Of a stretch of DNA of 32,000 nucleotides, positions 1 to 21,615 are shown one piece after another. How positions within the stretch are numbered: the first letter of the stretch is position 1; every line of letters starts with the position of its first letter. Location: assembly GCF_000446015.1 (NCBI RefSeq), contig NC_022093.1, forward strand, positions 1,140,001 to 1,172,000, read 5' to 3'. The notes below the pieces were generated by a model, which searched no databases, was not told the DNA's origin, and was given only the letters and a program-made list of their open reading frames with translations. Source of the stretch: Thermofilum adornatum (GTDB taxonomy: Archaea > Thermoproteota > Thermoprotei > Thermofilales > Thermofilaceae). The translations under genes were made by a program, and so were the position numbers.

Positions 1-462
1 GAAGGACTAATGGCACTAGAAGAAGCCTTAAAACAGGCGAAAAACGAGTACGGAATAGAGGGCCTCGTCACTGGGGCAATAAAGTCCAAGTACCAAGCCG
101 ACAGATTTAGCGAGGTCTGCAGGAAACTGGGCCTAGAAATATTTAGCCCTCTATGGATGAGAGACGAAATAGAGTTGCTTAGAGAAATCGTCGAAACAGG
201 GATCACGGCAATAATTACACGTGTAGGCGCCTACCCACTTAAAATGGATCTGCTCGGCAAGCCGATAAACAAGGAAATCATCAGCTACTTTGAGTCTCTC
301 AGGGAAATTTTGAACCCAAGCGGTGAAGGTGGAGAATACGAAACATTTGTCATTGATGCACCGCTCTTCAAAAAGAGAATAAAGATACTGAGGTCAAGGA
401 TTGTTGGAAAAGACTACGATGCCACCCTTCTAATTGAGGAGGCAGAGCTGGAAGACAAATAA
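1..462 (+). CDS. Diphthine-ammonia ligase / MJ0570-type ATP pyrophosphatase (Dph6-like), C-terminal ~150 aa; the 5' end lies outside the window
   Basis: Frame 1 is open from base 1. The translation (GLVTGAIKSKYQ...LGLEIFSPLW...SGEGGEYETFVIDAPLF) matches my memory of the MJ0570/Dph6 family C-terminal half, including the EGGE(F/Y)ETF motif. The ATG at 10 is probably internal. Confidence 0.65.
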   Translation, partial: EGLMALEEALKQAKNEYGIEGLVTGAIKSKYQADRFSEVCRKLGLEIFSPLWMRDEIELLREIVETGITAIITRVGAYPLKMDLLGKPINKEIISYFESLREILNPSGEGGEYETFVIDAPLFKKRIKILRSRIVGKDYDATLLIEEAELEDK

Positions 463-526
463 CATACTTGGTGATAGAATTCTGTTTTTCCACAGAGTAT
501 ACAATTAAGTGTCAAGTTTGGCAACC

Positions 527-534
527 TTTAAATA
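527..534 (+). promoter_or_regulatory. TATA-like box (TTTAAATA) for the ATP-cone gene
   Basis: A/T-rich octamer 30 nt upstream of ATG 564, with no SD motif between them. Consistent with an archaeal leaderless or short-leader promoter. Confidence 0.4.
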
Positions 535-563
535 CTTAGCAAGAATAAATATTTTTGACCATT

Positions 564-1127
564 ATGCCGAAGAAAATTGTAAAAAGCACAGGAAAACTAG
601 AGGAATTCGATAGAAACAAATTGATCAAATCCATCGTAGATGCTGGCGCACCTGAAGAAATAGCCATAGAAATTGCCAAAGAAGTAGAGTCAAAACTACA
701 AGAAGGAATGACCACGAGCGAGATACGCAGATATGTCCTCGCGAGACTAAAAGAACTAGCCCCACAAGCCTACGAAGCATGGACCTTCTACGACAGGATA
801 ACTAAGGGCAGAATCACCTTCGAGGACGGAAAATATATTGTAGTCGAAAAAGGCCACCTCTACCTCGGAAGAGAAGTCAAAGACATAGGCCCCAAAGGGC
901 TGTCCTCTTCAGAGGAAGTAGAAGGGATCCTCCACGAGTTAGAAGAAGACCTAAAATACGGCGTATCAAAGGCAACAATTAACGCGAGGCTCTATGCTTT
1001 GCTAATGGGAGTACTAAAGAGCAAGCACATGCCCAAAGAAGAAAAGGAAAAATCCGTCCAAATGATAAACGACTTCCGCCAGAAACTAGGATGGAAACCC
1101 TACGAGCTAAAGAAGCCAGTTGTCTAG
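564..1127 (+). CDS. Stand-alone ATP-cone domain protein with an uncharacterised C-terminal half
   Basis: The N-terminal ~90 aa (KIVKSTGKLEEFDRNKLIKSI...EIAKEVESKL...MTTSEIRRYVLARL) fits the ATP-cone pattern known from NrdR/RNR. I prefer ATG 564 over the TTG at 555 reported by the ORF track. Confidence 0.7.
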   Translation: MPKKIVKSTGKLEEFDRNKLIKSIVDAGAPEEIAIEIAKEVESKLQEGMTTSEIRRYVLARLKELAPQAYEAWTFYDRITKGRITFEDGKYIVVEKGHLYLGREVKDIGPKGLSSSEEVEGILHELEEDLKYGVSKATINARLYALLMGVLKSKHMPKEEKEKSVQMINDFRQKLGWKPYELKKPVV

Positions 1128-2002
1128 GAATTTCTGGTTGCAAGCGAAGTGCCATCACAGGTAACTCCTTTATCATTTAGCTGGTATAGTCCTTCCCTGC
1201 ATGTTGCAAATGTGACGCCTAAGCTGTGAGCTATGTCTCTTACCGTTGAGAGTGTCCTGTAGCGGTATTCTTTGTCTGCATATAGGTAGCCCTGTATCCT
1301 GTTTTTCCTGTCTCGATAAATGTGTTCGAACTTTGCCTCTAGGTCTGGGAATTCTGAAAGCATTCTGGCCAGGTTGTCGGGCTTGATTTTATATGTGGAG
1401 GACACGACGTGCCTAGCTCCAGCCGTTACTGCGGCCTCTAGCACGGCTGAGATAGATTCTTTTGAATCGTTTAAGCCCGGGATTATCGGGTCATATCTCA
1501 GGACGACTGGCACGCCGGCTTCTGTAAGCTTCTTTATCGCATAGATTCTCCTCGATGGGAAGGGTGCGCCCGGCTCTAGCCTTCTCGCCAGGGTCTCGTC
1601 GAGTGTTGTGATGGTTATTGATACGACGCTTCTCGCCTTGGAAAGTATGTCTATATCACGGGTTACTAGGTCAGATTTAGTGACTATCTCAATGACATAG
1701 TTGTCTGAAACTAGCTCAAGGAGGCGCCTAGTGTATTGGTACTTTGACTCCAGAGGCTGGTAGGGGTCGCTACTACTGCTTATGTTGATTATTGATCCCC
1801 TAGGTATCTTTGAAATATCTTTTCTGGCAGTCTCTAAAAAGTTGGCTTTGGGGCGAGGATTGAAAAAGTTCTTTATGTAGCTGGATGCATAGCAGTAGAG
1901 GCACCTGTGCTGGCAACCTGTGTAGGGGTTTACTGTATACTTGAAAGGACAGGTGCACAGGCTTTTTCCTCGCCATGGGTCAAAAGGTCGAATGTAGCTC
2001 AT
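1124..2002 (-). CDS. Radical SAM protein, SplB/COG1533-like (DNA-repair-photolyase-type annotation family)
   Basis: CxxxCxxC cluster motif in TGCQHRCLYCYASSY near the N-terminus. Length and overall pattern resemble the SPL-family radical SAM proteins. Start set at ATG 2002 (MSYIRPFDPW...); the 36-aa upstream extension in the ORF track looks non-coding. The stop overlaps the convergent gene in the palindrome CTAG at 1124-1127. Confidence 0.7.
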   Translation of the reverse strand: MSYIRPFDPWRGKSLCTCPFKYTVNPYTGCQHRCLYCYASSYIKNFFNPRPKANFLETARKDISKIPRGSIINISSSSDPYQPLESKYQYTRRLLELVSDNYVIEIVTKSDLVTRDIDILSKARSVVSITITTLDETLARRLEPGAPFPSRRIYAIKKLTEAGVPVVLRYDPIIPGLNDSKESISAVLEAAVTAGARHVVSSTYKIKPDNLARMLSEFPDLEAKFEHIYRDRKNRIQGYLYADKEYRYRTLSTVRDIAHSLGVTFATCREGLYQLNDKGVTCDGTSLATRNS

Positions 2003-2076
2003 TGGGCCTCTCCGTCGATATTTACTCAGAGTTTTCTTGGAAACATAAATTTTTATGGTACAAAATGTGTTGAGGC

Positions 2077-2259
2077 ATGATGGATGAAGAGGAAGTCCAG
2101 GAAAGGGCATCCCCCTTTGCTAGGCTCGAGTACGAAGAATGGAAGAGACACCAGACTCCACACCTAGAGGCAAAGGAGAAGACAAGCCAGTGGCTCTTCT
2201 TTATTGTGCTGGGCTCTCTCATGAGTTTACTAGCGATATATCTCTTGCTTTTCCTTTAA
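2077..2259 (+). CDS. Hypothetical small tail-anchored membrane protein (60 aa)
   Basis: Acidic N-terminus followed by one clear C-terminal hydrophobic helix (WLFFIVLGSLMSLLAIYLLLFL). It sits in an otherwise unassigned 327-nt gap. No homology recognised. Confidence 0.3.
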   Translation: MMDEEEVQERASPFARLEYEEWKRHQTPHLEAKEKTSQWLFFIVLGSLMSLLAIYLLLFL

Positions 2260-2329
2260 GGCATTTTTATTTAAACATTTCCAGATATGTTTTAATGCAG
2301 TTTTAAAAAGAATCTTTCCACGATAAAGA

Positions 2330-3343
2330 ATGCCAAAGGTAAATGTGGCAGTAGCTGGTCTGGGACGAATTGGCAAGGTTCACGCAGAAATAACTTTTAC
2401 TCGGCTAGAAAACGCCCGCCTAGTCGCAGTCATGGATGTAGTTTCCGAGTTGGCCAACTCTGTTGCAGAAAAATACAAAGTAAAGGCTTATACAGACTAT
2501 GACGCGTTGCTCAAAGACCCAGAGGTAGATGCTGTCTTCATAACGACTCCTACTAATCTCCACAAGGAAATGATAGTTAAAGCCGCGGAAGCCGGCAAAC
2601 ACGTGTTTACCGAGAAGCCTATAACTGTCACATCCAGTGAGGCCATCGAGGCAATCAAGGCCGCTGAAAAGGCCGACGTCAAGCTAATGGTCGGCTACAT
2701 GCGAAGATTCGACGATGCTTACGCTACAGCAAAGAAGAAAATTGTTGAAGGCTCAATCGGAAATCCCCTAGTCTTTATAAATATTGCTCGGGACCCAGGG
2801 GCGCCGCCCGGATGGGCACAGGATCCCAGACTAAGCGGCGGCATATTTCTGGACATGCTTTCCCACGACTTCGACATGGCCCGGTACCTAATGGGTAAAG
2901 AAGTTAAGGAGGTCTATGTCAAGGGCGACGCGCTCCTCTACAACGAAATTAAGCAGAAAGGCGACTTAGACGTGGTAACAATCAATTTCGAGTTCGAGGG
3001 AGGAGGATACGGTCTAATACACGGGAGCAGGAAAAGCGTCTTCGGCTATGACCTTCGTACAGAAATCATGGGAACAGACGGCACTATATATGTTGGGTCA
3101 CAAACTGACCCCAATCTAGCCGTGGGATCCAAGGACGGGTTGATATACAGAGGGGTTCAATGGTTCTGGTCAAGGTTCTATGACGCATATGTCCTTGAGG
3201 ACGCTGCCTTCATCAACTCGATACTGCGGGACGAGAAGCCACCGATAACGGGGGTAGACGGATTAAGGGTCGTCGAGATAGCTGAAGCATGCTGGAGGAG
3301 TGTCAAGGAACAAAGACCAATTTCCGTTAGAAGAACCCTTTAA
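2330..3343 (+). CDS. Gfo/Idh/MocA-family NAD(P)-dependent oxidoreductase (inositol/sugar dehydrogenase-like)
   Basis: N-terminal Rossmann motif VAVAGLGRIGKVHA, the family-typical EKP motif (VFTEKPIT) and a C-terminal alpha/beta domain. TATA-like TTTTAAAAA at 2301-2309. Confidence 0.85.
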   Translation: MPKVNVAVAGLGRIGKVHAEITFTRLENARLVAVMDVVSELANSVAEKYKVKAYTDYDALLKDPEVDAVFITTPTNLHKEMIVKAAEAGKHVFTEKPITVTSSEAIEAIKAAEKADVKLMVGYMRRFDDAYATAKKKIVEGSIGNPLVFINIARDPGAPPGWAQDPRLSGGIFLDMLSHDFDMARYLMGKEVKEVYVKGDALLYNEIKQKGDLDVVTINFEFEGGGYGLIHGSRKSVFGYDLRTEIMGTDGTIYVGSQTDPNLAVGSKDGLIYRGVQWFWSRFYDAYVLEDAAFINSILRDEKPPITGVDGLRVVEIAEACWRSVKEQRPISVRRTL

Positions 3344-3357
3344 AAGAAAGCTTTTTT
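3344..3357 (+). terminator. Oligo-T tract (CTTTTTT) after the oxidoreductase gene
   Basis: T6 run at 3352-3357, directly after stop codon 3341-3343 and between convergent genes. Archaeal termination typically uses T-tracts. Confidence 0.3.
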
Positions 3358-6164
3358 CATTCTTCCCAGTATTTTCTTGTCCTCGTATAGTTTGCCTCTG
3401 CCTGGAGAACATTCCTCGCTAGAGCCTCCATGCTGACGCCTTTTGATAATATGTTTTTAGCAGTTGTGGGCCCAACACCGTGACCTGCGAGGACAAATAC
3501 TGCTGGATATCCATACGACAAGACAAGAGAAGCGGATTGCCTAGCTTTCTCAACAAATTTTTTCTCGTCTGCTGACAGGTTTTCCTTTCTCCTCCATTTT
3601 TCGAGGATCTTTATCTTTTCTTCCTCGTATGGTCTTAGAACTGCGAGGGCTCTTGAGCCACAACGCGGACACTTGGAAAACAAATGGTAATCAGCAACCT
3701 TTATTGTCTGCCACCATTGTCCACAGTTTATACAGTAGAGTAGGACGTGCGAGTTCTCGATCCTCTTTATAATTGCCTGTATGATGCCAGAGGCGGGTAT
3801 ATCTGATGCAACTACACCCGCCTTCACGGTCGGCTTCTCAAATATTAACTGCGCTAGAGGTGTCAAGTCGTTTAGTTCTTTTATTATTATTGGTCTTTTG
3901 CCTCTTTCTATGTCTTGTAGGAATTCTTCTACTGAACGAAGGTCGAAGTGCTCAAATATAGTTGCCCTTATAGCTTCCGCATCGACAGGCGTCCCTACAA
4001 GTTTCCTCCTAATATTTGACAAGACTCCTGGCTCTGGTCTCGACTTCTTTATGTCTATTATGCCCATCTTTGAAGCAACGTGTGTGAACTCAATTAGATA
4101 TGAATTGCTCTCCCGTATAACATCGCTGAGAAAACGAAGTTTCCATTTCAGCCCCTCCACCAATATTTCTCTAAGCTTTCCCGGCGGCACATAAGACTCG
4201 CTAACAAGCAGAACCCTGTAGGGGTCGGAGAAATATTTAGCAGAGGATCCAGTATATCCCCGATAAGCATCTGCTAGGAGAAAGGCAAGCAGGTTATTCC
4301 CCTTCGTACCGAGATAGGAGTGAACCAGAACGAGGGTCTTATCCCTGTTCCTCACGAGTTCTACAAGGGTATTTTTCTCGCTTGGAACAGTTCCCAACGC
4401 TTCAAGAGTCTTGCCTACAAGCTCCACAGTTTTCTTGAAGGCTTCTTCCGGTAAACCATACATTCTTCGAAGTTTTTCCAGCTCTCCACTTGATGACATG
4501 TTTTCAGCTATGCGTCTATAGAGGGAAGCGACCTCGCGTGCAACTTTTCTATCTACAGGTAGGGTCATCCCTGTCCATATGGGTGGTTCGCCGAATTCAT
4601 GTATGTTTTCCGTGACGTATACCTTGTTTGCCTCTATGTCTACTTCTTCTACGTTCCACGCTTTTCCGCCTAGAATGATTATCTTGCCTTTGCCTATAAG
4701 TGAAGCGAAGGAGTAGTCTAGGGAACCAATTATTCTCCTTGACGCCATCTCAACAACGTCAAACGAGAAGGATTCAGGAATCATGGAAGCTGAAGAGTAG
4801 TAATATGAAATTGTTCTTCTTCCCATAGTGATATTTCCATTTGAAAATCTGATTATTCCTATGGAACGCATAAACTCCAGGAGATCTATTAGTTCTTTTA
4901 GAGATAAATTTTCAAAGGGAAGTGACCGAGTCACTACGTCGTAGAGTTTTTCAAGACTTATTTCACGATACTCGAGTACGAGCCCTGCTATTTGGTGTGC
5001 CAACACGTCTAGAGGTTTCTCGTGTGGTGCTTGCTCCTCTAGGTCCCCATTGACGCTCCTCCTAGCTAGGACGGCCGACTCCACCGCATCCTCGAGAAAT
5101 AATGGTACAATGACACCTCTCGATTTTTCCAATAAACTGTGACCAGCTCTTCCAACTCTTTGTACAAGCTTTATTGCTTGCTTTGGGGACCCAAACTGAA
5201 CTACAAGTCTTGCATAACCGATGTCCACACCTAGCTCGAGGCTGGACGTTGCAATAATGGCATCTATTCTTCCCTCCTTAAAGAGTCTCTCAGCCTCCTC
5301 CCTTTCGGCTCTTGAAAGGCTACCATGATGTACCCTAACATTTAGCCCATATTCATGAGTCAATATTCTTCCTATGAGCTCTGCAGTATCCCTAGTATTG
5401 GTAAAAACTATTACACCCCCGTCTCGGCAATACGAGGCAACTTTTTCAACTCTTTCTTCCAGATTTGCCTCGTTCCCAAGCTCCTCAATGCTTATTTCGT
5501 AAATTTTTCTTTCCTGCCATTCTATTACGGTTCCGCCTCTTCTACCAGAAAGAAGTCGAAGAGCAGTGTAGGGGTCTTTGAGCGTAGCCGACAGTCCTAT
5601 TATTTTTAAGTTAGGCGCAATTAGTCTCAAGCGTTCCAAGGCGAGCGAGAGCTGTGCACCCCTCTTGTCGTCCAGCAACTCGTGAACCTCGTCCACTATG
5701 ACCCATCTGATGTTACGCAATTTTTCCCGATACCTTTTATCAACCAACAGAAACTGAGCTGTCTCGGGAGTTGTAATCAGAAAGTGGGGTGGTTTCTCGG
5801 CTATCTTTTTACGTGTTTTTTGAGGCGTATCTCCATGTCGAATCTCTGCCTCGAATCCAAACATTTGGAAAAGCTCAATCATTCGGTCATAAATGTCCCT
5901 ATTGAGAGCACGTAGCGGAGAAATATAAATTGCAAAGATAGGTTCGCCCCCCTCATTGATGAGGTCGCGGAGAACTGGTAGAATAGCCGCCTCTGTTTTT
6001 CCGGCTCCAGTAGGTGCAACAATAAGGATATTTTGGTAGTGTCTAGATGCCTCTAGAGACTTCACCTGTATATAATTAAGTGTCTTGTAGCCAAGCCTCT
6101 CCAGTCCCTTTATAAGCTCCTCTTGGAGTAAATTGCTGAGCCTACGCAGTTCAACGCCCTCCAT
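3357..6164 (-). CDS. lhr: Lhr-family ATP-dependent DEAD/DEAH-box helicase (935 aa) with a C-terminal 4-Cys zinc ribbon
   Basis: SF2 motifs are present: APTGAGKTEAA (I), VDEVHEL (II), SAT (III) and QRVGRAGH (VI). There is a long Lhr-type C-terminal extension, and CINCG...CPRCG lies near the C-terminus. Confidence 0.85.
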   Translation of the reverse strand: MEGVELRRLSNLLQEELIKGLERLGYKTLNYIQVKSLEASRHYQNILIVAPTGAGKTEAAILPVLRDLINEGGEPIFAIYISPLRALNRDIYDRMIELFQMFGFEAEIRHGDTPQKTRKKIAEKPPHFLITTPETAQFLLVDKRYREKLRNIRWVIVDEVHELLDDKRGAQLSLALERLRLIAPNLKIIGLSATLKDPYTALRLLSGRRGGTVIEWQERKIYEISIEELGNEANLEERVEKVASYCRDGGVIVFTNTRDTAELIGRILTHEYGLNVRVHHGSLSRAEREEAERLFKEGRIDAIIATSSLELGVDIGYARLVVQFGSPKQAIKLVQRVGRAGHSLLEKSRGVIVPLFLEDAVESAVLARRSVNGDLEEQAPHEKPLDVLAHQIAGLVLEYREISLEKLYDVVTRSLPFENLSLKELIDLLEFMRSIGIIRFSNGNITMGRRTISYYYSSASMIPESFSFDVVEMASRRIIGSLDYSFASLIGKGKIIILGGKAWNVEEVDIEANKVYVTENIHEFGEPPIWTGMTLPVDRKVAREVASLYRRIAENMSSSGELEKLRRMYGLPEEAFKKTVELVGKTLEALGTVPSEKNTLVELVRNRDKTLVLVHSYLGTKGNNLLAFLLADAYRGYTGSSAKYFSDPYRVLLVSESYVPPGKLREILVEGLKWKLRFLSDVIRESNSYLIEFTHVASKMGIIDIKKSRPEPGVLSNIRRKLVGTPVDAEAIRATIFEHFDLRSVEEFLQDIERGKRPIIIKELNDLTPLAQLIFEKPTVKAGVVASDIPASGIIQAIIKRIENSHVLLYCINCGQWWQTIKVADYHLFSKCPRCGSRALAVLRPYEEEKIKILEKWRRKENLSADEKKFVEKARQSASLVLSYGYPAVFVLAGHGVGPTTAKNILSKGVSMEALARNVLQAEANYTRTRKYWEE

Positions 6165-6274
6165 ATATATCCATGTTCAACGCATAAAGTAAGGCTCAAA
6201 ATAAATTCTTTCCCAAAGACGATTCACACACGCTAATCTTAATAAAGCCACATGTCTAATTATTGAAGTAGGAA

Positions 6275-7081
6275 ATGGAGGAGATAACAGAGCTGACCAG
6301 AGAGCTTTCAGAATATATAAAACAGAAAAAAAGGGTATCTGCAGAAGAGCTGGTAAGTTGGAGCAAGAACAAAGGTTTAAGCTCGGTTATCCTATACATT
6401 GTTGTACAAGAACTACTCAAGGATAGAAGCTTCCAAGCAACAACAGACAAGATAATCATTGACGAAATCTTCCACATAGAGGTTCCCACTAGCCTATACT
6501 ACCTAGAAGCGACCGCAGAAAAAACCCCTATCCAACCCAAACAAATAGCTTTAAGAGAAGAGAAAAAGAAACAACGGAAAACTTCCGTTAAAAAGCCAGC
6601 TAAGGGGCCGTCCCTCCTAGCTTTTCTAGAACAACAAGAGGAACCCAAGGAATCTGAAAATGATCAAGATATGGAAAAGCCCGAAGAAGAACCTCTCCAC
6701 GAGCCTGAACAACTAACAGAGCCCCCTCCCAGCCGGCAAAATGAACCCCAAATATTTACATTCGATAACCGGCGAGAGCCAGAGCCCCCGCAACAAACTA
6801 GAGCAGCAGAACCAGTAATGTTCCAAGATCTCGAGATAACATCAGACCTTGAAACCGCTATACGCTACCTCGGGAAATATTGGAGTGTTGGGAGACTACG
6901 CCTCATAGACGATTTAATGGGAATGGGAGTCAAAGACCCAATCAAAGTCATAAATGAGCTGGCCAGGAAGGGCCTCATAGAGATCACCGAGCTAGATGTC
7001 GTAAATGCAAAGAAGGAATTAATTGAAGTCGCGAAAAGCTATCTTAAAGAAAAGAACATTGCGGACATCTTCTCGACTTAA
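6275..7081 (+). CDS. Hypothetical protein: two short winged-helix-like ends joined by a ~110-aa K/E/P/Q-rich disordered linker
   Basis: Clean ORF with TATA-like CTTAATAAAG ~30 nt upstream. The composition shift in the middle (EEKKKQRKTS...EEPKESENDQDMEKPEEEPLHEPEQLTEPPPSRQNEPQ) is read directly from the translation. No family recognised. Confidence 0.6.
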   Translation: MEEITELTRELSEYIKQKKRVSAEELVSWSKNKGLSSVILYIVVQELLKDRSFQATTDKIIIDEIFHIEVPTSLYYLEATAEKTPIQPKQIALREEKKKQRKTSVKKPAKGPSLLAFLEQQEEPKESENDQDMEKPEEEPLHEPEQLTEPPPSRQNEPQIFTFDNRREPEPPQQTRAAEPVMFQDLEITSDLETAIRYLGKYWSVGRLRLIDDLMGMGVKDPIKVINELARKGLIEITELDVVNAKKELIEVAKSYLKEKNIADIFST

Positions 7082-7115
7082 ATTCCCTAGTAAAAAACTG
7101 CAAATTTGTTTCCAG

Positions 7116-7442
7116 CTACTTCTTCCTTGAGGCAGGAACATATATTGGGACTTTAGAGTTCCTGTCCACAGCAACAACTAGGCCTCTCTGCTCAAGCTCT
7201 TTCAGTGTCTTCTTTGCCCTGCTAAGTTTTATGGAAAATCTCGAAGCTAAAACGTAAGGCGTAATGTACCTTAAGCCCTTGAGTTCCTTTATTATTTGCT
7301 CGAGGGAAACCTCTGTCAAGTTCCCTGTTGAAGCTTCTAACTTCATCTGGGGTTTTTTGCTTTCTTCTTTCTTCTTTGTTGTTTCTTCTTTCGTGGCTCT
7401 CTTTTCTAGGGCCGAGACTGTGGGTCTCTTCTTACCTCCCAT
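7116..7442 (-). CDS. rps25e: 30S ribosomal protein S25e
   Basis: Lys/Glu-rich N-terminus, then the conserved winged-helix region (ITPYVLASRFSIKLSRAKKTLKELEQRGLV). The size of 108 aa is typical. Confidence 0.85.
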   Translation of the reverse strand: MGGKKRPTVSALEKRATKEETTKKKEESKKPQMKLEASTGNLTEVSLEQIIKELKGLRYITPYVLASRFSIKLSRAKKTLKELEQRGLVVAVDRNSKVPIYVPASRKK

Positions 7443-7505
7443 GATTCACACCTGGTTGATACTATGGGAGAGTTTGCCTAAAAAGTTTTCGCATCTAAAC
7501 AGTTT

Positions 7506-8579
7506 TTAAATGTCGGTGACGCCGTCCTCTGTTATAGCGAAGGCGACCTCTTTCTCAGCATGCTTGGGGCTGTCTATGATTCTTGCTATACGTTTGCCCT
7601 CTTTTGCCTTCCTGAGCCAAATCCTGTATGTACATCCATGAGCCATTATGTTTCCGCCTGCTGGCTTCATGGGGTTTCCGAAGAAGATGTCCGGTGACGA
7701 CATAACTTGGTTAGTAACAACAACGGCCAGGTTGTATAGGCTAGCAAGCCGGTGAAGCTGGCTAATATGCCTGTTGAGTTTTTGTTGTCTTGATGCCAGG
7801 TTTTCGCGGCCTGGATATTCAGCTCTGAAGTGATTAATGAGGCTGTCGACAATTATCAGTCTAATATTCTGACTTTCAATGTATTTCTTAGCCTCATCTA
7901 CCAAGAGCATTTGGTGATCGCTATTGTATGCTCTTGCGTAGATTATGTTTTCTAGTGCCTTTTCTGGGTCTAGCTGTTTTGCCCTTGCTATCTGTATTAT
8001 TCTCTCCGGCCTGAAGGTGCCCTCTGTGTCTATGTATAGTGCCCTAGCGTTGAGGCCTCCCTTCTCCTTCGGTAGCTGGACCATCACCGCTAGCTGGTGG
8101 CAAATCTGAGTCTTACCAGCACCAAACTCACCAATCAGCTCAGTAATACTACCAACCTCAACACCACCCTCCAACAAATCATCCAAACTACGAACACCAG
8201 TACTGATGTATTCAAGGTTCTTCCTCTTTTCAAAAAGCACCCTAGCAGTGATGAATTCCTCTCCTCTATTAACCAGTTTCTGTGCAGCCCGGATTATGGC
8301 TATGGCCCTCTCTTCAGAACCAAGGACAACAGCTAGCTCATGTGCAGAAGCAAACGCAAGGTCACGCACAGAGTAGAAACCAGCCGCCCTAAGCTTCTGA
8401 GCAGTGATTCTCCCCACGCCATCTAGGTCCTCTAGTCTTATTTCTCCCTCGGGAACTTCCTCTTCAGACGGTTCAAGTGGTTCTTCTTCCAAAATCTCCT
8501 CTGCTAGCTTATCTGCATCAATCTCTTCTTCAAATGTTTTTTCCTCTTCTTCAACCTTTACCTTTTCTTTCTTAGGCAT
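7506..8579 (-). CDS. radA: DNA repair and recombination protein RadA (canonical), with a ~46-aa acidic N-terminal extension
   Basis: HhH N-domain ([19 protein letters not shown]), polymerisation motif GEEFITA, Walker [10 protein letters not shown], Walker B LIIVDS, and the L2 region through KPAGGN. Confidence 0.95.
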
Positions 8580-8699
8580 TACTAGACACTCCGAGTAAAA
8601 CTTACACCATAAATATAAAAACGTTGTCGTTGAAGTAGACCGAAAGTAAACACAGATAAGAAATAAAGCTTAATTAGATGGATATACCACAGTCATATC

Positions 8700-9227
8700 A
8701 TGCGTCAAGAACAGGTATATGGCGAACTCCACGAAGCCCTAAAGACTATAGTGAGCTATCTTTCCGAAGAGTGGAACAAACGTAACAACAGGGCGACACC
8801 TAGCGGCGTTCTCTCTGGTATTGGGTTTGACCAGATAGATCCATACTTAATTACCTACGGCTTTATTGTCAGGGGTCTCATCGAGAGAAGGAATCGAAAA
8901 ACCTATTTAACAAGGGTTGGCGAGGAAGCCCTTAATAGAATCATAGAGATAGCCGAGATTATCAGAGAAGACTCTTTGTTTCCAGACCTTGACAGAGGAA
9001 AAATCCTGGGGGCAACACTGTATGCTCTCTATGATTGGCAAAACAGCTATAGGACGGGGGAAGAATACTTGCAGTATCTAGAAAAGATCAAGGCTAAGAT
9101 CTTGGAAATTAAAAAGACTTCAGAGGAAAAGTTTAAGCTTCTAGCAGTCCTCCTGCCTCGAATAAAGCTGGATGAAGGCTACACGCTCGAGAAACTCCTA
9201 GAAGGCGTCCTGCATTTGGAAACTTAG
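8700..9227 (+). CDS. Hypothetical protein (175 aa), mostly helical, possibly winged-helix containing
   Basis: ATG-started ORF with A/T-rich upstream sequence (AAATAAAGCTTAATTAG). No motif recognised. Confidence 0.5.
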   Translation: MRQEQVYGELHEALKTIVSYLSEEWNKRNNRATPSGVLSGIGFDQIDPYLITYGFIVRGLIERRNRKTYLTRVGEEALNRIIEIAEIIREDSLFPDLDRGKILGATLYALYDWQNSYRTGEEYLQYLEKIKAKILEIKKTSEEKFKLLAVLLPRIKLDEGYTLEKLLEGVLHLET

Positions 9228-17249: not shown

Positions 17250-17936
17250 ATGGACGCTACAAGAAACATAATTGGTCTATTTGATTCAAACGTCGAGAAC
17301 TATGACTCGTGGTATGATGCCGAGTCGGGCAGGGCTGTCTTAGAGACAGAGGCAGAGATGCTTAGACGTGTATTGCCCAGGGGGCTCGGCGTCGAGATAG
17401 GTTCTGGGACCTGCAGGTTTTCTGGGCTTCTCCGAGAAGAGAGAGACATAGTGTGCCTTGATCCATCCCTTAGAATGCTTCGCCACGGCTATACACGGGG
17501 CAGATGCATTTTTGCAGTTGCAGGTGTAGCTGAGGACACGCCCTTAAGGAGTAGCTACTTCTCATTTGCATACATGGTAACCGTTATAGAGTTTCTCCAT
17601 GATCCAGCCATGGCCCTAAAGGAAACATGGAGAATACTTAAGCCCGGAGGCGTCCTTGCCGTCCTCTTCATCGAGAGGGAAAGCTCTTGGGGAAAATTTT
17701 ACATGGAGATAGCCCGGAAAGGCATCGACCCGATCCTTGCGAGGGCGAGACTCTACACAGCTAGGGAGGTAGACGAACTGCTAGCAACATCGGGCTTCAA
17801 GGTTCAGAAACATTTAATGTCCCTAGCTTATCCTCCACTAACTGTTCCCCCTGCTCCTCCAGAGATCTATGAGGAAGCTTGTAGCGACTGCGGCGTGACG
17901 CTTACAGTAGCCGCTAAGCCCAAAGAATTTATTTAG
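17250..17936 (+). CDS. Class I SAM-dependent methyltransferase (Methyltransf_11-like)
   Basis: Motif I GVEIGSGTCRF, and a post-II/III pattern (FAYMVTVIEFLHDP...LKPGGVLAV). Confidence 0.8.
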   Translation: MDATRNIIGLFDSNVENYDSWYDAESGRAVLETEAEMLRRVLPRGLGVEIGSGTCRFSGLLREERDIVCLDPSLRMLRHGYTRGRCIFAVAGVAEDTPLRSSYFSFAYMVTVIEFLHDPAMALKETWRILKPGGVLAVLFIERESSWGKFYMEIARKGIDPILARARLYTAREVDELLATSGFKVQKHLMSLAYPPLTVPPAPPEIYEEACSDCGVTLTVAAKPKEFI

Positions 17937-17959: not shown

Positions 17960-19165
17960 ATGGGAGAATACTCAAAGGCGATAGTTTCTACAACTACGCG
18001 TGACGGAAGACAAGTATACCTGTCTGGAGTAGCAAAGCCGCCCCAGCCAGGCCTAGACGAGGCCTTATCCAGTGTTCTAGCGTCGCTGTCCAATCATTCC
18101 TACAGCGAGCTAAACGGGGACAGGGTCGTCCTGGAAGCGAGAAAAATGCTCGAGTCACAGGGCTTCAAGGTCGAAAGCCTAGAAATATACGTTTCCCACC
18201 GTTGCCCAATGTGCGGGGCATCGATAAACATTACCCCCGAGACCGTCATCTATGTATGTCCCTACTGTGGCTGGACGGGCGACGTCTATGGGCACAGCCT
18301 AGCCTTTAAGGTCTGGCCTGCTCCACCAAGAGAAGCGGTAGAAGAAGCCGCAAGAAGGCTTGGAGGAGTACTAGACAATGCCACGTTGTACTATGTCCCT
18401 TTCTGGGTCTTCCGCGTAAATGTTACGGGAGAGTATACGGGGACAGCAGTCTACACGGTGCAACGCACTGAACGCGTGCCGGTAAGGAGGAACAGGGAGA
18501 CAGAGTGGGTAACAGTTGTAAGGACAGAGACCAGGACAAAGAAGGTTGCCGGCAAAATACGTTTCGAAACACTCAAGGGCGCATTCGGCCGTCTCTACGC
18601 TGAAATCTTTGGGGCAGGAGAATTAAAGAGCTGGGTAGAGCATTCCTGGCAGACAAATCCACCAAAGGAAATGGATCCACCTGAGCTGAAAAAATATGCC
18701 GAGAACTTTCTCTCTGCCGAGGTAAGTGATGAAGAGGCCCTTGGCCTTCTCAGAAAAGAGATAGACACAGAGATCTACCGCGAGATAGAAACGTCTGCCG
18801 CTAGGCAGGTAGAGGGGGCACTTACAGAGGTTCAAATCGAGTACCTATCTACCCAGGTAAACACGCCGGAAAAACACCTAGTATATGTGCCTTATTGGTT
18901 CTTCACATATAAAGTTAAGGGAAACCTGTATGCAGGGTCCCTTGTTGGCCCAACAGCCACAATTATCAGGGCTGAGAGGTACATCTCCAACGCGGAGCGA
19001 GTAGCAAAGATGATGAGTGCATGGGTAGCTGTCCTGGTTACTGGCGCATTTACAGAATTCGCCCTCCGATATGATGTCGGCTGGGGTTTTCTCGTAATTC
19101 CACTGGGCCTCCTAGGAGCCTATAAACTGGCGTCTTCAGCTTTTGAAGCGGCAGAGGTGGTTTAA
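17960..19165 (+). CDS. Zinc-ribbon protein with a C-terminal TM hairpin (401 aa); paralog of the next gene
   Basis: CPMCG-x15-CPYCG. Motifs YYVPFWVF and LVYVPYWFFTY. C-terminal hydrophobic segments WVAVLVTGAFTEFAL and GFLVIPLGLLGAY. Confidence 0.7.
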   Translation: MGEYSKAIVSTTTRDGRQVYLSGVAKPPQPGLDEALSSVLASLSNHSYSELNGDRVVLEARKMLESQGFKVESLEIYVSHRCPMCGASINITPETVIYVCPYCGWTGDVYGHSLAFKVWPAPPREAVEEAARRLGGVLDNATLYYVPFWVFRVNVTGEYTGTAVYTVQRTERVPVRRNRETEWVTVVRTETRTKKVAGKIRFETLKGAFGRLYAEIFGAGELKSWVEHSWQTNPPKEMDPPELKKYAENFLSAEVSDEEALGLLRKEIDTEIYREIETSAARQVEGALTEVQIEYLSTQVNTPEKHLVYVPYWFFTYKVKGNLYAGSLVGPTATIIRAERYISNAERVAKMMSAWVAVLVTGAFTEFALRYDVGWGFLVIPLGLLGAYKLASSAFEAAEVV

Positions 19166-20043
19166 TGCCTATTTGTCCATACTGTGGGGCAACTGTGGAG
19201 AGGCAGGCCGGGGAAGTAGTGCTTACGTGTCCCTTCTGTGGCACGGCGTTCACGCTTCAGGGAGTCGAGGTCGGAGAACACCTTATGGGCAGGGTCAATT
19301 ACGATATACAGCACCTCTTTCAGACCTTCAAGGCTTGGGCTCTGAGGATGCCTGAGACCCCCAACGATTTCACAGAAAAAGCCACCTTTAACGACTATAA
19401 CCTAATATTTTATCCCTTCTGGATCTACGTTGTAAGGGTGAAAGTTTCTTATCCAGGCGGCTCAGAAGAAATCACACATAACGTTGCCCTGCCAGCATCC
19501 ACGTCAATAACTAATTCGCCCATCGAGAAGGCGAGACTTTCACTGGCGGGCAAAGTATACTACAGCCACAAATATGTACTAAGCAACAATGGTAAAATCC
19601 TAAACCCAGACATCGACCCGTCCACGGCAGACCAAAAAGCTCTGACGCTGGCAGTCTCCCTTGCACAGCAGTCCCTAGCATACCGCTTCGGGGGCAGGGC
19701 CCGACTAAAGATAGACGGAACAGAAATAGTCGAAAGAAAACTCGTGCACCAGCCAATATTCCATGTAAATTATACCTACAACGGTAAAAATTACAAGTTC
19801 ATAGCTGACGCCTCCGACTCGAGGATTCTCTACGCCGAGGTACCCGTCGAACTAAGATTCCGCGTGGCGGCGATGCTTGGAGGAATCACATCCCTAATAC
19901 TTGGATTAGCAATGCTTCTCTTCTCCAATAATCACCCTGTATTTGCACTGACATCCCTGCTTGGCTTCCTAGTCGTGGGCGGCGTGTCCTTCAGCAAAGC
20001 TCTAACCTCCACCGTGGTTACTAGAAAATTCTTCGCCGAGTAA
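19165..20043 (+). CDS. Zinc-ribbon protein with a C-terminal TM hairpin (292 aa); paralog of the previous gene
   Basis: TAATG stop/start overlap at 19163-19167, with GAGGTGG upstream. CPYCG-x14-CPFCG. Motifs LIFYPFWIYV and LVHQPIFHVNYTY. Two C-terminal TM segments. Confidence 0.7.
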   Translation: MPICPYCGATVERQAGEVVLTCPFCGTAFTLQGVEVGEHLMGRVNYDIQHLFQTFKAWALRMPETPNDFTEKATFNDYNLIFYPFWIYVVRVKVSYPGGSEEITHNVALPASTSITNSPIEKARLSLAGKVYYSHKYVLSNNGKILNPDIDPSTADQKALTLAVSLAQQSLAYRFGGRARLKIDGTEIVERKLVHQPIFHVNYTYNGKNYKFIADASDSRILYAEVPVELRFRVAAMLGGITSLILGLAMLLFSNNHPVFALTSLLGFLVVGGVSFSKALTSTVVTRKFFAE

Positions 20044-20075
20044 TCCTAGAGCATATCCTCCTTGGTTTACAAAGA

Positions 20076-20083
20076 TTTTTAAG
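20076..20083 (+). promoter_or_regulatory. TATA-like box (TTTTTAAG), internal promoter candidate for 20105-21615
   Basis: Located 22 nt upstream of ATG 20105 in a 61-nt gap, with no SD motif before the ATG. Confidence 0.35.
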
Positions 20084-20104
20084 AATGAAAGACAACAAAC
20101 TATT

Positions 20105-20626
20105 ATGGCTGAAATATATAAAAAGGCTACAAGTAACTTACGTCTTCTCGAAAAACTCGAACTTATACTTCCAGGGTACCGGGGCTACAAGGAGAAGGAA
20201 CTCAGGCGGGAAACTGACCGCCTCATACGGGACTACCTCATATCTAAGATACAGCCAGCTTACAGGGACTTCAAAAACGCTATGAAGGCTATTGCCCTCT
20301 CAGGCGATCAGACACTCGCAACAGAATACAATGAGGTCCAGGCAATTTTTGACCGTGTCATCTCTAAGCTCAAAACAATGAGCTATGGCTATACAGGGTT
20401 CTTCGACCTAGTTAAAGTGGAGGAGCAACAGCTCGACAAGATGATCGAGTTTGACTGGAACCTAGTTTCAACGGCCGAGAGGATCCAAGAAAAAGCCCGC
20501 AACGTGGCTAAGTCTGATCCAGGCAAGCTAAGGGAAGCCCTAGACGACTTGAAAAACGAGCTACTTTCCCTCGAAGACACGTTAATTAACAGAGAAAACA
20601 TTATAAAAGGTGTGGGTGAGAAGTAA
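20105..20626 (+). CDS. All-alpha, coiled-coil-like protein (173 aa), uncharacterised
   Basis: Charged, heptad-like sequence throughout. There is a conserved-looking PGYRGYKEKELRRETDRLIR segment. The stop overlaps the next start (TAATG at 20624-20628). Confidence 0.65.
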   Translation: MAEIYKKATSNLRLLEKLELILPGYRGYKEKELRRETDRLIRDYLISKIQPAYRDFKNAMKAIALSGDQTLATEYNEVQAIFDRVISKLKTMSYGYTGFFDLVKVEEQQLDKMIEFDWNLVSTAERIQEKARNVAKSDPGKLREALDDLKNELLSLEDTLINRENIIKGVGEK

Positions 20627-21615
20627 TGCCCCAAGTAATCGAATGGGTAAACCCAGGGCCAGAGGACATCGTCTGGCGGTATCCAGATGAAAACATTACA
20701 TGGGGTGCACAGCTGATTGTCCACGAGTACGAGGTCGCGGTCTTCTTCAGGGACGGAAAAGCATACGACGTCCTCGGCCCGGGGAGACACACACTCACCA
20801 CCCAAAATCTTCCTCTCATTACAAAGGTTTTAACAACACTCGCCGGCTACCCAACAACGCCGTTCAAGGCTACAGTCATATTCGTATCTACAAAGACATT
20901 CAAGGGGCTCTTCGGAGGAAGAACCCAGACCACAGAGCTCGCACCATTAATGTTTAGGGGAGGCTACTGGTTCAAGGTCGGCGACCCAAGAATATTTGTA
21001 ACAGAGGTCGTTGGCGGACAAGGAAAATACACCTCCAGCGAGGTCAACGAGTTCATTAGGGGCTTTATAAACGAGAAAATAATCAAGCACCTTTCAACAT
21101 ACACACTGGCAGACGCATTCGCAAACATCGAACAAGTATCCTTCAAGACAAAGGCTTTCCTACTCGAAGAACTAAGACGCATAGGGCTAGAACTCATAGA
21201 CCTCAAATTCGAGGCAATAGACACCACACCAGAATACCGTGACAGGCTCTTCTGGATAAAACAAACAGGAGCCGCAGGCTACGTCCTCCAAATGGACACA
21301 ACAAAACAAGTAGCCCGCGAACTAGGAAAATCGCCCGGCGCAGCCGTAGGCGCAGGAGTAGCAATAATACCCCCACTAATGCAGCCCCCACCCGTACAGC
21401 CGCCGCCAGCTCCGCAGCCACAACAGCAGCCGCAACCAGTACAGCCCCAAACAAAAACATGTCCAAACTGCGGCCGCCAGGTACCCATCGATGCCATGTT
21501 CTGCCCCTACTGTGGCTACCGTTTCCCGCCCCCAACAAAGAAGTGTCCAAACTGCGGCAGGGACGTGCCGGGAGACGCCCTCTTCTGCCCCTACTGCGGA
21601 ACAAAACTAGCATAA
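20626..21615 (+). CDS. SPFH/Band-7 protein of the COG4260 (YdjI-like) type, with a P/Q-rich linker and two C-terminal zinc ribbons
   Basis: The N-terminus VIEWVNPGPEDIVWRYPDENITWGAQLIVHEYEVAVFFRDGKAYDVLGPGRHTLTTQNLPLI fits the family pattern I recall. The linker is PPLMQPPPVQPPPAPQPQQQPQPVQPQ. The ribbons are CPNCG...CPYCG, twice. Confidence 0.85.
   Translation: MPQVIEWVNPGPEDIVWRYPDENITWGAQLIVHEYEVAVFFRDGKAYDVLGPGRHTLTTQNLPLITKVLTTLAGYPTTPFKATVIFVSTKTFKGLFGGRTQTTELAPLMFRGGYWFKVGDPRIFVTEVVGGQGKYTSSEVNEFIRGFINEKIIKHLSTYTLADAFANIEQVSFKTKAFLLEELRRIGLELIDLKFEAIDTTPEYRDRLFWIKQTGAAGYVLQMDTTKQVARELGKSPGAAVGAGVAIIPPLMQPPPVQPPPAPQPQQQPQPVQPQTKTCPNCGRQVPIDAMFCPYCGYRFPPPTKKCPNCGRDVPGDALFCPYCGTKLA
21460..21612 (+). 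repeat. Tandem 84-bp (28-codon) duplication encoding the two zinc ribbons
   Basis: TGTCCAAACTGCGGC occurs at 21460 and 21544. TTCTGCCCCTACTG occurs at 21499 and 21583. Both pairs are offset by exactly 84 nt. Confidence 0.8.

Follow-up and report, generated by a model that had tools for sequence, protein, structure and literature searches.

A probable PspA-free archaeal version of the YdjG/YdjI SPFH membrane module in Thermofilum adornatum

SPFH proteins are found in all domains of life; for those of the soluble YdjI type, knowledge of attachment and control comes only from a single Bacillus operon, in which they are tied to PspA. In B. subtilis, soluble YdjI is recruited to the membrane by YdjG and YdjH, and the dependence of the SPFH protein's membrane association on such partner membrane proteins has been established for Bacillus only (PMC8581546). 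Under the new names of these proteins, signalling from the membrane complex SamGH is held in check by SamI (bioRxiv 10.64898/2026.02.06.704340). This operon, pspA-ydjGHI (renamed pspA-samGHI), is the closest known system to a cluster of four genes, here called g1 to g4, that lies in Thermofilum adornatum (NCBI RefSeq assembly GCF_000446015.1) within positions 1,140,001 to 1,172,000 of contig NC_022093.1; these 32,000 nucleotides (nt) are called the window below, and positions are counted from the first of them. Two of the four components of the Bacillus operon are common to both, two were not found here, and a helical protein, H, is added, as is a small protein, M, in other archaeal lineages.

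Two further systems offer partial likenesses. The NfeD partners of SPFH proteins are membrane proteins with a C-terminal oligonucleotide/oligosaccharide-binding (OB) fold domain. In the SPFH-NfeD operons of bacteria and archaea -- stomatin/QmcA-YbbJ, flotillin-YuaF/YqiJ and the archaeal PH1511-PH1510 -- the SPFH gene is tightly coupled to that of a small dedicated partner, as here (PMC2636767). In the Thermofilum cluster, however, the SPFH protein encoded by g4 has no transmembrane (TM) helix, and H is a soluble helical protein rather than an NfeD.

The second likeness is to the accessory network around phage shock protein (PSP) systems surveyed by Ravi et al., 2024 (PMC11237479). The passages of that survey that were searched include the Band-7 plus zinc-ribbon architecture, list Toastrack and DUF4178 among the PSP-system partners, both of which recur below -- the one in a single H-S locus, the other in a single H-DUF4178 fusion -- and give the fold of YdjG as related to YpeB and NTF2-like proteins. 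The survey is centred on PspA neighbourhoods, whereas the module described here is PspA-free, and in those passages no description of the H or M family was found.

Relatives of YdjI and YdjG in the cluster

By its sequence, the product of g4, referred to as S, is a soluble YdjI-type SPFH protein, with a Band_7_1 domain and a C-terminal zinc ribbon, and so the counterpart of YdjI/SamI. Its Pfam matches are Band_7_1 (PF13421, 8.7e-29; 101.1 bits against a curated cut-off of 24), Band_7 (PF01145, 1.1e-24; 87.9 bits, cut-off 23.6) and DZR (2.9e-16), and BLASTP aligns it with YdjI at 1e-16 over the full length, terminal zinc ribbon included. Kyte-Doolittle analysis gave no TM segment in g4 or in any of 82 homologues. 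In the C-terminal part (21364-21612), a low-complexity linker rich in P and Q, PPLMQPPPVQPPPAPQPQQQPQPVQPQ, leads into an internal tandem duplication: two nearly identical zinc-ribbon units (CPNCGRxVPxDAxFCPYCG).

The zinc-ribbon proteins encoded by g1 and g2, together with their archaeal relatives, are called Z, and sequence comparison identifies both as true homologues of YdjG. An archaeal Z profile (A2, with g2 as its first sequence) was aligned with YdjG by hhalign at 98.95% (E 1e-17) over 236 columns, covering YdjG 52-321, from the second zinc ribbon to the start of the TM helix. YdjG and a Z protein of Bathyarchaeia match by BLASTP at 8e-16, phmmer with B. subtilis YdjG detected g2 at 6.6e-7 and g1 at 5e-3, and two signatures, YIPFWMF/YVPFWVF and LPVWMVSYDY/APIWFIAYEY, are common to YdjG and Z. 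The YdjG sequence used came from a B. subtilis-type pspA-ydjG-ydjH-ydjI operon on a metagenome contig, found through the ydjG forward primer printed in PMC8581546. The relationship between g1 and g2 as paralogues is weak but real (BLASTP 3e-9), and one 250-aa Z protein from Bathyarchaeia is matched by the cores of both (g1 6e-14, g2 9e-21). A preliminary description of the window, made from its letters, had named g4 as YdjI-like and related the zinc-ribbon proteins to YdjG; both assignments are borne out by these matches.

The AlphaFold2 (AF2) model of g2 (predicted local distance difference test (pLDDT) 90.1, predicted template modelling score (pTM) 0.81) consists of an N-terminal zinc ribbon, two modules each made of a helix and a long beta-hairpin, and a C-terminal TM hairpin. 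The hairpin helices are modelled at residues 230-253 and 258-280, with Kyte-Doolittle segments at 234-252 and 259-277 (scores 2.24 and 1.99). A zinc ribbon, two alpha+beta modules and a C-terminal membrane segment are also the parts of YdjG/SamG; the membrane segment is predicted as two TM helices in g2 and is marginal in g1. YdjG differs in having two zinc ribbons and one TM helix, where Z has one zinc ribbon and, in Thermofilaceae, a TM hairpin or, in Bathyarchaeia, no TM segment. A Foldseek search of the g2 model against the PDB gave no significant match, YpeB being listed only at E 1.1. As in Bacillus, the YdjG- and YdjI-type genes lie on the same strand in one cluster; the sigma-W regulation of the Bacillus operon is not applicable to the archaeal module.

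The T. pendens orthologue of g1 has 404 aa. It keeps the N-terminal 75-aa extension of g1 (17960-18184), which has no cysteines and occupies the place of the first zinc ribbon of YdjG; this extension may be a degenerate or replaced first ribbon. Among Bacillota, relatives of Z recovered by profile search adjoin TPM (YdjH-like) genes and match YdjG at 1e-64 to 1e-67. One Bacillota metagenome contig (L006:3-3874, plus strand) carries two tandem pairs of YdjG-like and TPM (YdjH-like) genes with no adjoining Band_7_1 gene.

Conservation of the H-S pair and its membrane partners

Scanning one genome per species for H, the family of the g3 product, gave more than 527 loci. The best 80, which are from Bathyarchaeia, Thermofilaceae and Nitrososphaeria, were analysed by calling their open reading frames (ORFs) and searching these with the Z, H and S profiles. 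S directly follows H in 78 of these 80 archaeal loci, with a gap of -4 to +12 nt in 75 of the 78. One of the two exceptions is a contig end, and in the other an unrelated gene takes the place of S. A second profile search, made with distant H representatives, gave named matches that are all from Acidobacteriota, and a Band_7_1 plus zinc-ribbon gene follows H in all five of the distant loci that were looked up, three of them named as Acidobacteriota (the other two being L093 and L094). In the acidobacteriotal locus L089, a zinc-ribbon-Toastrack (DUF4097) gene (6591-7820, plus strand) stands between H (6001-6561) and the Band_7_1 gene (7923-9062).

Two of these loci have peculiarities of their own. 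L035:5001-7042, the sole complete locus with no SPFH gene after H, has an unrelated 391-aa ORF there and an M gene just upstream of H. In L089, a gas-vesicle (gvp) cluster lies directly upstream, divergent, at 10-5768 on the minus strand.

The gene directly upstream of H is Z in 51 loci, which come from two archaeal classes that differ in their flanking genes; Z precedes H in Thermofilaceae and in most Bathyarchaeia, and two paralogues in the order Z-Z-H-S were seen in T. pendens and in one other Thermofilaceae genome. Strict conservation is confined to the g3-g4 pair and does not extend to all four genes. The four-gene module put forward in the preliminary description is conserved beyond Thermofilum but was drawn too narrowly, the second Z paralogue being present only in some Thermofilaceae. 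In locus L007 the gene after Z was considered as an H homologue and proved to be another Z-like fragment.

The Z-H-S-M genes of Bathyarchaeia lie, in about 50 loci, within a wider conserved block whose flanks are a gene for a 475-aa flavin adenine dinucleotide (FAD)-dependent oxidoreductase (Pfam) and, on the other side, a 541-aa gene that by eye we take to encode a class I lysyl-tRNA synthetase (flank genes at L020:2736-4163 and 6905-8530). This larger block is probably plain synteny rather than function.

The two remaining components of the Bacillus operon were not encountered at these loci. With B. subtilis and E. coli PspA as phmmer queries, at single-sequence sensitivity, no match was obtained in the window or at any H locus, the rest of the T. 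adornatum genome lying outside the search. YdjH (TPM) matched only Bacillota loci, and the Pfam families listed for the archaeal loci do not include TPM_phosphatase; conversely, H was not found in the Bacillota loci examined. NfeD is absent from the precomputed Pfam annotation of the neighbours in those loci that have such annotation; H and M have no Pfam match. The earlier expectation that the archaeal system would have different partner proteins agrees with this absence of PspA and TPM/YdjH from H loci, and its authors' unawareness of any characterisation in Crenarchaeota is matched by our literature search, which likewise yielded no archaeal characterisation.

M emerged from neighbour clustering as a family of about 115 aa in which the number of predicted hydrophobic segments is mostly three to five and most often four. 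It accompanies H-S in about 70 loci. In Bathyarchaeia its gene comes directly after S, in Nitrososphaeria it stands before H, and L011 and L012, two Thermofilaceae loci that have no Z, show the order H-S-M. The window contains no M. The distribution of M is complementary to that of the membrane segments of Z, which has a TM hairpin in Thermofilaceae and none in Bathyarchaeia: 55 loci combine M with a Z that has no TM segment, four have a Z with TM and no M, and only two, both of them contig ends, have neither M nor a TM segment in Z. M is present where Z is without TM helices or absent, and absent where Z bears a TM hairpin itself. Most simply, this would mean that a small membrane anchor is needed by the module in every case, either as the tail of Z or as a separate protein. 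No homology was detected between M and the TM hairpins of g1 and g2.

Our preferred reading, to which we give a probability of roughly 0.7, is that the cluster is a PspA-free archaeal version of the YdjG/YdjI (SamG/SamI) SPFH membrane module; this is a statement about structure and organisation. By analogy with other SPFH proteins, S would be a soluble scaffold, expected to oligomerise under the membrane. Translational coupling would cause H to be made in fixed proportion to S, with which H would be in physical contact as a dedicated cytoplasmic partner, serving as an adaptor or as a regulator of the assembly of S or of its docking onto the anchor. Z would itself contact S and hold it at the membrane and, where Z is without TM helices or is missing, the separate four-TM protein M would supply the anchor. 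The likely role, as in Bacillus, would be to monitor or organise the cytoplasmic membrane when the envelope is under stress, and we consider the chances of this specific function, which is argued by analogy, to be about even. The Toastrack gene inside one H-S locus and the fusions of H with DUF4178 and with a zinc ribbon tie H to envelope-stress modules.

Several points weigh against this reading. The evidence for the archaeal members is computational. PspA and YdjH, the source of the known output in Bacillus, are not at these loci, and the archaeal output may differ. Adjacency within Bathyarchaeia is weak evidence by itself, since housekeeping genes share the same conserved block. In g1, hydrophobicity is marginal for both C-terminal segments, neither being called at the Kyte-Doolittle threshold of 1.6 (about 1.5-1.6 by hand calculation), and H is without a recognisable fold relative, its proposed role being drawn from gene context.

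In a more far-reaching version, the YdjI-type SPFH system of archaea and bacteria alike would have the H-S pair as its ancient core, the PspA/YdjH link of Firmicutes would be a later substitution, H a new class of SPFH co-factor, and the Z hairpin and M interchangeable anchors. H could then, for example, provide in trans a helical wall that, by comparison with cage-forming SPFH proteins, seems to be missing from Band_7_1 proteins, or it could act as a membrane-active effector of a new kind. We offer this tentatively and think it rather unlikely.

Gene layout and the case for two separate units

The features of the cluster are collected in Table 1. The g1-g2 and g3-g4 pairs are each coupled by a TAATG stop/start overlap, at 19163-19167 and 20624-20628 respectively; the layout given in the preliminary description, with four genes on one strand, two TAATG-coupled pairs and a 61-nt gap holding a TATA-like box, was verified in all its coordinates and junctions. 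Existing annotation (AGT35638.1 to AGT35641.1) describes the products only as hypothetical, "TFIIB-type zinc ribbon-containing" or "SPFH domain-containing".

Table 1. Coordinates of the genes, domains and promoter-like elements of the Thermofilum adornatum cluster, with examples of M genes at related loci
Feature	Position	Strand	Remarks
g1	17960-19165	+	ORF, 401 aa
g2	19165-20043	+	ORF, 292 aa
g3 (H)	20105-20626	+	ORF, 173 aa
g4 (S)	20626-21615	+	ORF, 329 aa
g4 Band_7_1 SPFH domain	aa 16-221, nt 20671-21288	+	Pfam
g4 C-terminal zinc ribbons (two)	aa 277-302 and 304-328	+	Pfam
g2-g3 spacer	20044-20104	+	61 nt; holds a TATA-like box
TATA-like box TTTTTAAG	20076-20083	+	about 25 nt upstream of the g3 ATG, inside the g2-g3 spacer
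TATA-like box TTTATTTA	17928-17935	+	about 28 nt ahead of the g1 ATG; read from sequence
M examples	L020:6506-6853; L003:7520-7852; L035:4531-4896; L011:6529-6834; L012:3137-3457	+	neighbour clustering

The box ahead of g1, TTTATTTA, overlaps the stop codon of the preceding methyltransferase gene and is a candidate promoter for a leaderless g1-g2 transcript. The distance of TTTTTAAG from the g3 start codon is consistent with an archaeal TATA box and a leaderless mRNA, and the g2-g3 spacer is probably an internal promoter for g3-g4. In 51 of 57 related loci the spacer between Z and H is 33-122 nt long. The Bathyarchaeia spacers have a conserved AAACTTTAAAAG box about 54 nt before the start of H (23 of 45 upstream regions have it at -54/-53) and, behind it, a GGAGG that resembles a Shine-Dalgarno sequence; these two elements support a separate promoter for H-S.

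Such a promoter-like box and conserved spacer ahead of g3-g4 would also suit two independent units lying side by side, a zinc-ribbon membrane pair (g1-g2) and an SPFH pair (g3-g4) that form no common complex. The units do occur apart: a Z pair without H-S is seen in L008, and H-S without Z in Nitrososphaeria and some Thermofilaceae, while the synteny of Thermofilum reaches into unrelated flanking genes. We nevertheless regard this separation as distinctly unlikely. Z is directly 5' of H in the 51 loci of Thermofilaceae and Bathyarchaeia noted above in spite of their different flanks, YdjG and YdjI of Bacillus belong to a single operon and are mutually dependent in their localisation, and the exact complementarity between the Z hairpin and M is hard to explain unless Z and H-S-M cooperate.

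Scans of the window for tRNAs and Rfam families returned neither. The only tandem repeat in it is a heptamer, CTTTCTT, present in 4.7 copies at 7360-7392.

The helical protein H and the meaning of the module

The product of g3 is predicted to be a cytoplasmic, all-helical member of a large uncharacterised family. Its AF2 model (pLDDT 82.9, pTM 0.78) has helices at residues 2-21, 31-57, 60-91, 107-136 and 139-168, arranged as two helical halves joined by an extremely conserved, poorly modelled loop. Two motifs are near-invariant in the family, PGYxGYKEKExRRExDxxxR (aa 23-42) and SYGYxGFFDxVKVxExxLDxxxxxD (aa 93-117). When 1.84 billion representatives were searched with a profile of the family, 1,790 clusters at 50% identity matched with E<=1e-3, and 999 with E<=1e-10. 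No Pfam family matched g3 at E<=1, and none recurred among 32 members of H; a description of H or M was found neither in Pfam nor in the literature searched, which for H included that on LIMLP_15305, Band_7_1 and COG4260/SPFH. The only curated model to match g3 is NCBIfam NF047596 (LIMLP_15305_fam; 1.7e-11, aa 30-166), at a sub-threshold 44 bits. This match places H in the same superfamily, and the score, far under the 210-bit cut-off, means that g3 is not a member of the LIMLP_15305 equivalog. The Leptospira locus tag for which that family is named appears only in a table of one transcriptome paper, with no function recorded. Searches of PDB sequences with g3 alone and with the H family profile gave no match, and neither did Foldseek with the g3 model against the PDB and BFVD at E<=0.001. 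Some family representatives are fusions (P0200, P0157, P0229 and P0248): one member is H-DUF4178, and other forms have a zinc ribbon and a P/T/Q-rich linker ahead of H, or a low-complexity P/Q/G-rich tail of 220-250 residues behind it. A relationship between H and YdjH was tried and rejected (hhalign 0.1%).

That the 173-aa helical protein might play the part of PspA or ESCRT-III was proposed in the preliminary description, and it could be imagined as a functional equivalent: a membrane-binding, polymerising effector recruited by S and Z to damaged membrane. H is all-helical and of modest size, PspA was never seen in H loci and H not in the Bacillus pspA-ydjGHI operon, a pattern resembling mutual replacement, and YdjI of B. 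subtilis does bind PspA (PMC8581546). The comparisons of sequence and fold, however, make this very unlikely and leave the original proposal without a profile, Pfam or structural relationship to rest on. The H profile scored 0.18% by hhalign against E. coli PspA (a query checked against PDB 4WHE, 4e-82) and 0.5% against that of B. subtilis; PspA_IM30 and Snf7 were matched neither by g3 (E<=1) nor by the 32 family members (E<=0.1), and did not appear in the profile search of PDB sequences. Against ESCRT-III and PspA structures, Foldseek gave only noise-level results with g3 (CdvB2 filaments, TM-score 0.2 and probability 0.12; a phage PspA, root-mean-square deviation 27.9). ESCRT-III proteins have a long alpha1-alpha2/3 hairpin followed by shorter helices, whereas H has helices of about 27-32 residues, separated by a conserved loop. 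The N-terminal helix of H is not strongly amphipathic, its hydrophobic moment giving no support to a likeness with PspA alpha0, and the position of the H gene is that of YdjH rather than of PspA. A system for antiviral defence or abortive infection with SPFH as its scaffold, suggested by the frequency of zinc ribbons and membrane effectors in defence systems and by nothing further that was found, is extremely improbable, since for all four proteins PADLOC gave only noise-level zinc-ribbon matches and PHROGs nothing specific, the locus lies in conserved housekeeping synteny in Thermofilum and Bathyarchaeia rather than in a variable island, and it has no nuclease, NTPase or toxin domains.

On the preferred reading of a PspA-free YdjG/YdjI module, the partnership of YdjG with YdjI extends into Thermoproteota with no PspA at the locus, which speaks against taking the PspA link of Firmicutes as the general case. 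For Thermofilum, the module provides a lead on membrane maintenance, there being no PspA or ESCRT-III gene near it in the part of the genome that was searched. Two uncharacterised partner families have surfaced: H, which comprises about 1,800 clusters and is not covered by a Pfam model, and M. The exchange between a hairpin on Z and a separate M makes a directly testable prediction on how the scaffold is anchored, and the strict coupling of H with S points to H as a specific candidate for the regulator or co-factor that the YdjI-type SPFH subfamily has so far been missing.

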